From Escherichia phage HY03, in the sequence record NC_031047.1: a stretch of DNA of 64,000 nucleotides. One strand, 5' to 3'. Each line of letters begins with the position of its first letter. Position 1 is the first letter of the stretch. The position numbers were made by a program, and so were the translations under genes. Below are positions 22,637 to 24,043 of the stretch, piece after piece. Under the pieces are notes generated by a model that was not told where the DNA came from, made no database searches, and saw only the letters and a list, made by a program, of their open reading frames with translations.

Positions 22637-23281
22637 TTATCCTTGAACGAACTTGTAAGGCATGTTTGCAATATCTATGCAAGACGCAATAATTCCAAGA
22701 GATGATTCTACTTTCTGTTTAACATTTGATGAAACAAATGATGCAAAGTCAACTCTGTCTTCTATTTCAATATCACCTGTCATTGCAACTACTTCACCAG
22801 TTTCCATTAGACGGTCACCGTCATAAATTACTGATTCGGTGAGTTCTTCCGTAGTCATAACTTCAGCTTGAATGAGTTTTGTATTATTAAATGTTGTTCC
22901 GTCATTATTAGAAGCATCAGTTATTTTATTAACTTTGACCATCAATCCACGTGGTAGAATAACTTCAGCTTCTGTTGCTATTCCGAGACTTCCTGGATAT
23001 ACAACATTAACTTTATGAGCTCCATCAATTGCCCATCCTATTTGAACTTTAACGTATTCAGGATTTTCTTTATACGCTCTTATTTCGTTTGGATTAATAG
23101 TTATTCCTTCTTCATTTTTATCAACTGTCAATTCATTACGAGCTTCTGGTTCTAAAAGACCGATACCAGCATGTGTAATTCCAAAACGTCCAAAAATGAT
23201 AGGAGTTAAAGAAGTAGATACAAAATTTCTGAAATAGAACACTTTATTTTTAACTAATGCTTCGTATATAGGAGCAGTCAA
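22637..23281 (-). CDS. hypothetical protein, possibly a 5'-truncated gene remnant at the synteny breakpoint
   Basis: 214-aa ORF whose only start is TTG without RBS; in-frame stop 6 codons upstream; abuts the divergent 116-aa gene. Confidence 0.45.
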   Translation of the reverse strand: MTAPIYEALVKNKVFYFRNFVSTSLTPIIFGRFGITHAGIGLLEPEARNELTVDKNEEGITINPNEIRAYKENPEYVKVQIGWAIDGAHKVNVVYPGSLGIATEAEVILPRGLMVKVNKITDASNNDGTTFNNTKLIQAEVMTTEELTESVIYDGDRLMETGEVVAMTGDIEIEDRVDFASFVSSNVKQKVESSLGIIASCIDIANMPYKFVQG

Positions 23282-23282
23282 T

Positions 23283-23633
23283 ATGAAAGGTAATGTTTAT
23301 TTAGTAGTTCATGATTTAACATTCTATTTTAATCATAATGATACTGTTATTTCTGAACGTGTAATTAATTTGCTTTATCAGCATGCAGATTATGTTTATG
23401 TCGAAAACGAATATGGTCATTGGCAATTTCTCAAAAATCGTTCATTTGGTTTAGATGGTTACGAATATTTTGATCGTAAAGACCTTTTAGATACAATTCC
23501 GTTATCTACACAATATCAAAATCATAAGTCTTTACATAAATGCCGGCTAATTCGAAATGCTGAATCCGCGTATGAAGCAATTGATTTATGGCGTAAACGC
23601 CGTGAACAGATTGATGCTTTAAAAGAATATTAA
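23283..23633 (+). CDS. hypothetical protein
   Basis: 116-aa ORF with AGGAG RBS, immediately upstream of the structured RNA locus. Confidence 0.65.
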   Translation: MKGNVYLVVHDLTFYFNHNDTVISERVINLLYQHADYVYVENEYGHWQFLKNRSFGLDGYEYFDRKDLLDTIPLSTQYQNHKSLHKCRLIRNAESAYEAIDLWRKRREQIDALKEY

Positions 23634-23639
23634 GAAACC

Positions 23640-23940
23640 GGGTCGCTACCGGTAAGTCGTCGGACTGATGTTCCCTGGAGTATAGTTTCCTCCCACAGTT
23701 TTACTGTGTTCTGGCTCTTTACTATTACAGCAGAAACGGCGCACCGAATTATCGATTCGAGGAAATATCTTTGCCATAAGCCGAGTAGCGTTTTTGACGG
23801 AACGTTCGGATATGGTCGAGATATGGCCTTTTAAAAATATTGAGTAGCGTCAACTACTTAATAACCGGGTTCAAATCCCGGCGTTTCGTACAAACACTTG
23901 CCTTAGCAGGTGGAACCCCGACAAGGTTGCCGCAAGGCTT
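23640..23940 (+). ncRNA. structured non-coding RNA locus (tRNA-cluster remnant or stable small RNA); contains a tRNA-like T-arm
   Basis: 300 nt without ORF, GC-richer than flanks, several hairpins, canonical T-arm CCGGG-TTCAAAT-CCCGG at 23865-23881, GNRA-capped helices. Confidence 0.4.
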
Positions 23941-23969
23941 AGCCCTGACCGAAAGGTTGGGGCTTTTTA
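23941..23969 (+). terminator. intrinsic terminator: 10-bp stem, GAAA loop, U5 tail
   Basis: AGCCCTGACC-GAAA-GGTTGGGGCT followed by TTTTT. Confidence 0.8.
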
Positions 23970-24043
23970 GTTTGAATCACTCAGAGAATGCTGTTACGGA
24001 TAATAAATAATTAATAACCAATAAATTATTTCAAGGATTTTAA

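Follow-up and report, generated by a model that had tools for sequence, protein, structure and literature searches.

Predicted orthologues of the T4 stable RNAs rnaD and rnaC in Escherichia phage HY03

The DNA analyzed here is a 64,000-nucleotide (nt) stretch of Escherichia phage HY03 (NC_031047.1), hereafter the window, to which all HY03 coordinates refer. At 23634-24043 it carries a structured locus that a first-pass annotation had taken for either a decayed transfer RNA (tRNA) cluster or a stable small RNA. The latter guess was correct. As judged from sequence comparison, the locus almost certainly consists of orthologues of two stable RNAs of phage T4, rnaD and rnaC, and the alignment to T4 species 1 and 2 RNAs that the annotation had suggested identifies it outright. 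These orthologues, followed by a conserved trailer and a tRNA-operon terminator, very probably explain the element as a whole. The element is therefore of an already known kind, the species 1 and 2 RNAs of T4, which were sequenced in the 1970s, with the operon terminator. Both RNAs are under structural selection, with compensatory change at 29/50 pairs of rnaC and 13/22 pairs of rnaD. Added here are covariation-backed models, a candidate loop-loop contact in rnaC, the modular placement of both RNAs in tRNA slots and a record of their mis-annotation.

HY03 is a T4-like phage (Tequatrovirus), and its locus is 100% identical over 336 nt to that of Escherichia phage vB_EcoM_G4498; relatives of the locus were present in 818 phage records. 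In the T4 reference, the homologous stretch comprises two misc_RNA genes on the minus strand right after tRNA-Arg: rnaD at 71053-71171, annotated as 'small, stable RNA; species 2 RNA' (119 nt), and rnaC at 70908-71046, annotated as 'species 1 RNA' (about 139-140 nt). A four-way alignment with T4 remained colinear over the entire stretch that begins with base 1 of rnaD and includes the terminator, and the GenBank records of RB6, RB27 and ATK48 label the matching stretch rnaC/rnaD. The predicted layout in HY03 is as follows.

23630-23746, plus strand: rnaD (T4 species 2 RNA) orthologue, from the colinear alignment and covariance model R2
Next 5 nt: spacer between rnaD and rnaC
23752-23890, plus strand: rnaC (T4 species 1 RNA) orthologue, 139 nt, from identity to T4 and covariance model R1
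23892-23969, plus strand: conserved 3' trailer and intrinsic terminator
From there to 24043: A+T-rich spacer carrying the ribosome-binding site of the next open reading frame (ORF)

The rnaC orthologue matches T4 rnaC at 136/139 bases (97.8%), the three substitutions including a G to A change in the T loop (UUCGAAU to UUCAAAU). Model R1 scored it at 165.6 bits (E = 4e-41), the same score as T4 itself. Its predicted fold is also that of T4 rnaC, as is its position, 3' of rnaD and 5' of the operon terminator and e.8, with e.8, e.6 and onward colinear; the tRNA genes of the operon, in contrast, are absent from the HY03 window. The rnaD orthologue (model R2, 114.8 bits, E = 1e-26) resembles T4 rnaD in its 5' ~45 nt, its 3' ~27 nt, its overall fold and its place immediately upstream of rnaC. 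Identity was 96% over the 5' 49 nt and 93% over the 3' 27 nt, whereas the center could not be aligned, about 45 nt being replaced here by an unrelated hairpin. T4 rnaD starts 1 nt after tRNA-Arg and ends in an encoded CCA, while HY03 rnaD follows an ORF of 116 amino acids (aa) and ends in CCG; if its 5' end is homologous to that of T4, it overlaps the stop codon of this ORF. The earlier placement of the locus 'where T4 has its tRNA cluster' thus holds insofar as this is the 3' end of the T4 tRNA operon, but the matching stretch lies just downstream of tRNA-Arg and does not correspond to tRNA genes.

The locus as a whole was 89.8% identical to T4, compared with 92.5-96% for the neighboring genes e.8-e.5, and is not better conserved than its surroundings among close relatives. 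Selection is therefore argued from distant genera and covariation, and both conservation and covariation in related phages were found for the two RNAs. An Rfam scan, which the first-pass annotation had also proposed, returned no family match for the structured RNAs at the locus: with Rfam 15 there were no matches at gathering thresholds in the whole window and only chance-level ones at E up to 10. No Rfam family describes rnaC or rnaD, including transfer-messenger RNA (tmRNA), Y RNA-like, hammerhead, ROOL and GOLLD families. Decoding tRNAs, decaying pseudogenes, protein genes and known Rfam families are excluded as identities for both RNAs.

Structures of rnaC and rnaD

Homologues of rnaC were gathered from GenBank phages, IMG/VR and metagenomes, and alignments and covariance model R1 were built from them. 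The RNAalifold consensus is a four-way junction resembling a cloverleaf, with the following predicted elements.

23753-23759, plus strand: acceptor-like 5' strand CGAUUCG, pairing with CGUUUCG at 23882-23888, with two central U.U mismatches
23760-23832, plus strand: long arm (~65 nt) in the place of the D arm, with apical loop UUGACG at 23794-23799
23839-23863, plus strand: anticodon-like arm of 9-10 base pairs (bp), with 6-nt loop CGUCAA at 23848-23853
23865-23881, plus strand: T arm (CCGGG, UUCAAAU, CCCGG), its third pair being G-C, A-U or U-A depending on the genus

Several of these elements had been noticed from the letters alone. The T arm stands as described (CCGGG 23865-23869, TTCAAAT 23870-23876, CCCGG 23877-23881), directly followed by the 7-nt acceptor-like strand CGTTTCG (23882-23888), and the anticodon-like hairpin (GTAG, CGTCAA, CTAC) does have a 6-nt loop; a D arm is absent. 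The opinion that this is no canonical tRNA was also borne out, since ARAGORN at default settings called no tRNA in the 64-kb window and Rfam gave no tRNA match.

Substitutions across the homologues preserved these helices. A plain MAFFT alignment of 16 distinct sequences (A5) had compensatory changes at 18/50 pairs, with 98% of cells paired. The same picture was obtained with two alignments fitted to model R1, a procedure that favors the helices of the model: 25/50 pairs were compensatory and 98% of cells paired among 23 distinct sequences (A8), and 29/50 and 96% among the 20 distinct sequences of the more diverse A9, which spans Tequatro-, Mosig-, Dhaka-, Karam-, Kanagawa- and Winklervirus as well as Klebsiella phages. 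When the 3' partners were slid by 1-3 columns as a control, only ~40% of cells were paired, and the covariation score was reached by 0/500 shuffles. Compensatory changes affected 19/25 pairs in helices 2-4 of the long arm, whose loop stayed constant while the stems turned over, and 7/9 pairs of the anticodon-like arm (helix 6). In the acceptor-like stem, an A-U pair was replaced by G-C in 14/20 distinct sequences. The T arm is contiguous with the acceptor 3' strand (23865-23888), and the pairs of this unit covary. Single-sequence folding gave -50.5 kcal/mol (z = -5.3; 0/200 shuffles as good), and the length of rnaC was 138-141 nt in every lineage. Together, these alignments show that rnaC keeps a predicted tRNA-shaped four-way junction through compensatory change.

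The likeness to canonical and class II tRNAs lies in the 7-position acceptor-like stem, which continues directly into a T stem of 5 bp carrying a UUCAAAU loop, in the four-way junction and in the tRNA-like spacing to neighboring genes in other phages. In contrast to a canonical tRNA, rnaC has a 65-nt arm in place of the D arm, a 6-nt loop in the anticodon-like arm, two U.U mismatches in the acceptor-like stem and no encoded CCA. The sole off-target match of model R1 was a class II tRNA, T4 tRNA-Ser (L003 6118-6206; 13 bits, E ~0.5), which gives a faint hint that rnaC may descend from a tRNA with a long variable arm.

An internal strand of rnaC in T4-like sequences, ACGGAACG (23798-23805), can also pair with the acceptor 3' strand CGUUUCGU (23882-23889), and this pairing is the basis of pseudo-tRNA calls; strings of the GCGUUU type occur three times in rnaC. 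An alternative rnaC conformation formed in this way is conceivable, although the pairing is lost in distant homologues. We rejected the 95-nt pseudo-tRNA that ARAGORN builds on this alternative acceptor: its pairing is weaker in CIP9-type copies and does not persist in KaAlpha or PEi20, whereas the terminal strands CGAUUCG and CGUUUCG covary as partners. A permuted-tmRNA call, made by ARAGORN only at a 90% threshold, spans rnaD and rnaC and 'encodes' a chance ORF, and we regard it as spurious.

These data bear on whether the locus could be a set of decayed tRNA genes, that is, remnants without function that drift neutrally. Such an origin could account for the T arm and acceptor-like stem retained in rnaC, for the pseudo-tRNA that ARAGORN reports at 23797-23891 with a lowered threshold, for the labels tRNA-Lys or tRNA-Asn that other annotators gave the same stretch and for the weak match of model R1 to T4 tRNA-Ser, and an ancient class II origin of rnaC is possible. 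Neutral drift, however, is contradicted by conservation of the locus in at least seven Tevenvirinae genera, with compensatory substitutions that keep its helices, by the fixed length and constant loops of rnaC and by the loss of ARAGORN's alternative acceptor pairing in distant homologues. Discrete stable species also accumulate in T4 (PMC9697503). We therefore consider decayed tRNA genes, the other option of the first-pass annotation, very improbable.

For rnaD, the RNAalifold consensus was derived from an alignment (A4) of 24 distinct sequences that included the Vequintavirinae phage W70. Its main predicted elements are listed below; a short helix P3, a UG/CA step and a helix of the GUAAG/CUUAC type complete the fold, in which the P1 hairpin, closing helix, P3, P4/5 and variable tip are conserved.

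23637-23653, plus strand: P1 hairpin (ACCGG, GUCGCUA, CCGGU), 5/5 pairs compensatory
23656-23662, plus strand: 5' strand GUCGUCG of the closing helix, pairing with 23737-23744 (CGGCGCAC, one bulged C)
23685-23717, plus strand: hypervariable apical hairpin (CACAG, UUUUA, CUGUG) with its flanks

The closing helix (GUCGUCG with CGGCG(C)AC) is near-invariant, although Kanagawavirus copies have C-G in place of one G-C pair, and the stretches AAGUCGUC, UCCCUG, CACA and GGCGC are kept in nearly every copy. The apical hairpin is made of unrelated yet self-complementary sequence in T4, JS98, W70 and others. Compensatory pairs numbered 7/22 in close homologues (A4) and 13/22 once distant copies were added, the latter including 5/5 pairs of P1, 3/4 pairs of P3 and the G-C to C-G swap of the closing helix. 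The structure of rnaD is thus supported by covariation, although its folding energy alone does not stand out (z = -0.45). Model R2 found weak but consistently placed copies in KaAlpha (25.7 bits), CIP9 (19.7 bits), PEi20 and two Klebsiella phages (L043 and L044, 29-35 bits), as well as a second copy in A5-4.

Two further readings of rnaD were rejected. The CUGAUG...GAAAC segment has the look of a hammerhead core or of a C/D-type k-turn, but matching stems and an Rfam ribozyme match were both missing, and the internal loop GACUGA/GAAA is not kept in the copies of KaAlpha, CIP9, PEi20 and L018. A heteroduplex of rnaD with rnaC through the P1 loop would involve only 5 complementary nt, partly within an rnaC stem, and each RNA occurs without the other in several genera.

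The locus also contains two small ORFs, of 42 aa (23706-23834) and 56 aa (23840-24010), which could in principle be genuine protein genes and are annotated as such in G4498 (MK327939). The first-pass annotation had described ~300 nt lacking an ORF, and 23634-24043 indeed holds no ORF of at least 60 aa and only chance ORFs of 34-56 aa. The 42-aa ORF starts within the hypervariable hairpin of rnaD, which is replaced in T4, JS98 and W70, and the 56-aa ORF crosses the terminator and is shifted out of frame in many homologues by 1-nt indels in the trailer (76- versus 77-nt forms). Because substitutions preserve pairing and not codons, and T4 has annotated RNAs here, it is extremely unlikely that either ORF yields a real product. 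The composition is likewise as first described, G+C being 0.42-0.47 over 23600-23999 against 0.26-0.36 in the flanks.

A candidate kissing-loop contact in rnaC

The two hairpin loops of rnaC, UUGACG (23794-23799) and CGUCAA (23848-23853), are exact reverse complements (6/6). Both are constant even though their supporting stems differ in sequence between homologues; the anticodon-like stem, for instance, is GAGUAG/CUACUU in HY03 and UUGUGA/UCGCAA in the homologue L055. Sixteen sequences combine UUGACG with CGUCAA and five combine UUGGCG with CGCCAA, with no mixed pairs. The carriers of the second combination form one clade of Klebsiella phages (L043, L044, L049, L050 and L052), in which an A to G change in one loop is matched by a U to C change at the pairing position, converting A-U to G-C. 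Pairing between the loops was 6/6 Watson-Crick in all 20-23 distinct sequences. Since the loops are unpaired in the alignment model, the alignment was not biased towards pairing them. We consider the evidence that the two hairpin loops form a kissing-loop contact good, although not overwhelming. No earlier description was found in the literature searched, which did not extend to the classic T4 papers, and we think that the contact is new.

The contact could form within one rnaC molecule. In the geometry that we envisage, the path would run ~19 bp out from the junction. Helix 4, the kiss of 6 bp and the anticodon-like helix would together form a return path of ~22 bp, and a 3-nt bulge would serve as the hinge; such closure fits the tightly kept length of rnaC. 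Alternatively, the loops might pair head to tail between molecules, so that rnaC would self-assemble into functional dimers or rings, as the pRNA of phi29 does. Two complementary, co-varying loops on different arms of rnaC would suit this arrangement. Further precedents are the phage RNAs ROOL and GOLLD, which often lie near tRNA islands and form cages held together by kissing loops (PMC12286853), contacts that were first read as tertiary (PMC12286853), and cages can also be built by RNAs shorter than 200 nt (bioRxiv 10.64898/2026.07.01.735769). Like these RNAs and the pRNA of phi29, rnaC is a phage-encoded structured RNA, and the architecture of ROOL and GOLLD relies on conserved loop-loop pairing. 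On the other hand, rnaC has 139 nt compared with roughly 600-800 nt, it shares no sequence or model similarity with ROOL or GOLLD in Rfam, and intramolecular closure is geometrically plausible at its tightly fixed length. We regard functional self-assembly as rather unlikely.

Genomic distribution and possible functions

Across phage genomes, rnaC and rnaD behave as independent modules that are almost always located in or beside tRNA arrays. The Dhakavirus phages JS98 and IME341 have rnaD and the trailer without rnaC, the Gaprivervirus TH54 has rnaD without rnaC, and Vequintavirinae phages have rnaD only. Karam-, Kanagawa- and Winklervirus and Klebsiella phages carry rnaC and weak rnaD-like copies apart from each other within the tRNA array; in the Winklervirus LC53, model R2 gave no rnaD match. 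Outside Tequatrovirus, rnaC sits inside tRNA arrays at 4-9 nt from the neighboring tRNAs. It lies between tRNA-Trp and tRNA-Gly in VIPECLUMC02 and in KaAlpha (rnaC at 1428-1566, tRNA-Trp ending at 1423 and tRNA-Gly starting at 1572), and between tRNA-Phe and tRNA-Trp in LC53. rnaD begins 0-8 nt after a tRNA, namely tRNA-Arg (T4, JS98), tRNA-Met (W70), tRNA-Asn (KaAlpha) or tRNA-His (CIP9), and the PEi20 copy stops 1 nt short of tRNA-Asp. In HY03, G4498 and D5505, rnaD does not directly follow a tRNA, as the 116-aa ORF lies between; adjacency to a tRNA is a feature of context and does not define rnaD.

Among the rV5-like Vequintavirinae, the W70 copy (L023 1992-2093) stands right after tRNA-Met, and A5-4 (L045) has two copies, at 1477-1578 and 2371-2491. 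The central hairpin of W70-type rnaD resembles that of Karamvirus KaAlpha. The distribution suggests that the rnaD module may have been transferred horizontally between phage families; its core had no match in 185,579 bacterial genomes. In TH54 (L022, ~1620-1700), two tandem hairpin repeats of ~40 nt, with the cores CGGACGGUGCGUCCG and CGGAUGGUGCAUCCG, follow rnaD in the place of rnaC.

In T4, RNAC was detected by Northern blot, and RNAC and RNAD were classed as late RNAs (PMC9697503). Reviews give the function of the T4 stable RNAs as unknown (PMC3014915; likewise PMC12685909), and a preprint on nicotinamide adenine dinucleotide (NAD) caps in T4 makes no mention of rnaC or rnaD. The placement of both RNAs in tRNA slots suggests that host tRNA-processing enzymes would release them, cutting rnaC and rnaD from a polycistronic transcript. 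RNase P would cut on the 5' side of the minihelix that the acceptor and T arm of rnaC form, endo- and exonucleases would act elsewhere, and the two RNAs would then accumulate because their compact folds resist decay. This agrees with the classic T4 work, in which species 2 and 1 reportedly arise from one dimeric precursor, a 5' end depends on RNase P, RNase III cleaves the long arm in vitro and RNase E takes part in processing. As rnaC has neither a 7-nt anticodon loop nor an encoded CCA, it is not expected to take part in decoding.

One way to read this organization is that the RNAs form a purely cis-acting module for processing or termination, which guides cutting and 3' protection or insulates downstream genes. 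In favor of this, the RNAs are always found either within a tRNA array or at its end, with rnaD adjoining the 3' ends of tRNAs, and the operon finishes with the trailer and terminator. T4 deletions of the region are also reportedly viable. Yet the two complementary 6-nt loops and the conserved junction core exceed what a processing signal needs; rnaC lies in the middle of the array in Karamvirus, where ordinary spacers of 4-9 nt suffice elsewhere; a 351-nt ORF separates rnaD from any tRNA in the HY03 lineage; and the RNAs persist as abundant stable products, unlike degraded spacers. We judge a purely cis-acting role unlikely, and the distribution, with its independent modules, tRNA slots and occurrence of rnaD in Vequintavirinae, favors a function in trans over that of a mere spacer.

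With respect to such a function, in a T4-like phage, BW-1, one single-nucleotide polymorphism (SNP) in rnaD was the only change common to all three independently evolved lines that gained virulence on ECOR34 (PMC12685909). Taken together, the invariant loops and junction core, the spread of the modules and the BW-1 SNP hint at a host-dependent role in trans. The favored mode of action, held with low confidence, is that rnaC and rnaD, as stable products of a tRNA operon, are structured tRNA mimics that would bind or titrate a putative host or phage factor in a host-dependent manner. A more specific version, which we hold to be speculative, is that late in infection they serve in trans as decoys or scaffolds for a host factor that binds tRNA, with rnaC closed or multimerized by the 6-bp loop contact; a tRNA-targeting defense nuclease or a processing enzyme would be examples of a decoy target. 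At its boldest, this version would have rnaC assemble into a ring or cage like those of ROOL and GOLLD. If true, a decoy or scaffold role would account for the independent movement of the modules between tRNA arrays, across genera and even across families of phages, and for the change in rnaD seen with adaptation to a new host.

Several points weigh against this interpretation of the HY03 locus and its role. Accumulation of the stable RNAs is shown for T4 (PMC9697503) and not for HY03, and the BW-1 SNP, which maps to the variable part of rnaD, may have pre-existed in the stock. The T loop of rnaC is non-canonical in Kanagawavirus and Winklervirus (UGCAUGC, UGCAUCC), so that full tRNA mimicry is not universal, and the covariation between the rnaC loops comes from one clade and represents a single evolutionary event. 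In HY03, the usual tRNA operon with its promoters is replaced upstream by an antisense fragment of alt, and the late-promoter consensus TATAAATA did not occur on the plus strand within 10 kb upstream; with the operon promoters displaced and no TATAAATA nearby, transcription of the locus is putative here. Finally, processing by RNases P, E and III is reported in T4 literature of the 1970s-80s, and T4 deletions over the region are reportedly viable on laboratory hosts.

Other RNAs offer partial parallels to rnaC and rnaD. In E. coli, the RNAs 3'ETS-leuZ and ITS-metZWV are spacers transcribed with tRNA operons and function as RNA sponges. Like them, rnaC and rnaD would be non-tRNA segments of an operon that are released by processing and persist, and the HY03 trailer is built like a 3'ETS RNA (hairpin, single-stranded stretch, terminator); however, rnaC and rnaD are far more structured than known spacer sponges. 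The tRNA-like domain of tmRNA and the Y-RNA-like YrlA RNAs fuse an acceptor/T-arm mimic to a non-tRNA body, an arrangement that rnaC shares, but rnaC has no Rfam match to them, no G3.U70 and no CCA.

In the absence of an Rfam model, the RNAs regularly go unrecognized in hundreds of phage genomes or are wrongly labeled there as hypothetical proteins, tRNA-Lys or tRNA-Asn. G4498 (MK327939) has two 'hypothetical proteins' over rnaD/rnaC; 'tRNA-Lys' is given in G4500 (MK327945; a 94-nt stretch inside rnaC), G2133 (MK327928) and phage 55 (OQ599310), and 'tRNA-Asn' in AV114 (OR352944), while most records leave the locus unannotated. The comparative models make the question of their function, which is ~50 years old, somewhat easier to test, since they provide targets for mutation: the kissing loop of rnaC, the junction core, and the rnaD scaffold with its hypervariable tip.

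Upstream junction, trailer and terminator

Immediately upstream of rnaD lies the following gene.

23283-23633, plus strand: 116-aa ORF (phrog_3355), which separates rnaD from tRNA-Arg in this sub-lineage

In G4498, D5505 and G4500, 10-11 tRNA genes precede this ORF. A phrog_3355 member also stands at the 3' end of the tRNA array in Karamvirus VIPECLUMC02 (L058 1959-2333), and the family appears to be a recurrent companion of tRNA clusters. Sigma-70-like matches inside the ORF were at chance level and were discarded as promoters.

In HY03, the start of the phrog_3355 ORF is abutted by a truncated alt gene (ADP-ribosyltransferase). To the left of the junction at 23280/23281 are the C-terminal 214 codons of alt on the minus strand, followed by gp54 and gp48 (left flank 22637-23281, right flank 23283-23633), and because of this junction the whole tRNA cluster is missing from the 64-kb window. 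The tRNA genes and rnaC/rnaD are on the minus strand in T4. In the SG1 record, alt and rnaD/rnaC both match the minus strand, whereas they are on opposite strands in HY03; this flip in relative orientation makes the junction one of the inversion type. On either side, colinearity with T4-like genomes extends over more than 10 kb, and sequence spanning the junction was absent from public phage records. The junction may represent a true inversion, a recombinant or an artefact of assembly.

Downstream of rnaC, the trailer and terminator comprise the following predicted elements.

23895-23912, plus strand: trailer hairpin (CACUUGC, CUUA, GCAGGUG)
After this hairpin: conserved GGAACCCCGACAAGG, a small GCAA hairpin, then the terminator
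23941-23964, plus strand: intrinsic terminator stem with GAAA loop, followed by U5 at 23965-23969, from the terminator scan

The 45 nt after rnaC are near-invariant (ACACUUGCC(U)UAGCAGGUGGAACCCCGACAAGG), and the trailer is kept even where rnaC is missing (JS98, IME341). In Mosigvirus copies, a G-C pair of its first hairpin has become A-U by compensatory change, and the minimum free energy of the trailer fold has z = -3.5. The terminator already recognized in the first reading of the sequence, a 10-bp stem with a GAAA loop and T5, was the best match of the scan, which found 7 terminator-like sites in the 4-kb region against 2.2 expected; ARNOLD-based annotations in D5505 and G4500 place a predicted terminator at the same element. 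By analogy, trailer and terminator together have the layout of a 3'-external-spacer RNA.

In D5505 (L001 3444-4020), G4500, HP3, YUEEL01 and many others, two copies of the terminator hairpin lie downstream of rnaC and enclose an extra 157-aa ORF. This ORF is absent from the HY03 window and from G4498, and it has the appearance of a cassette whose insertion duplicated the terminator.

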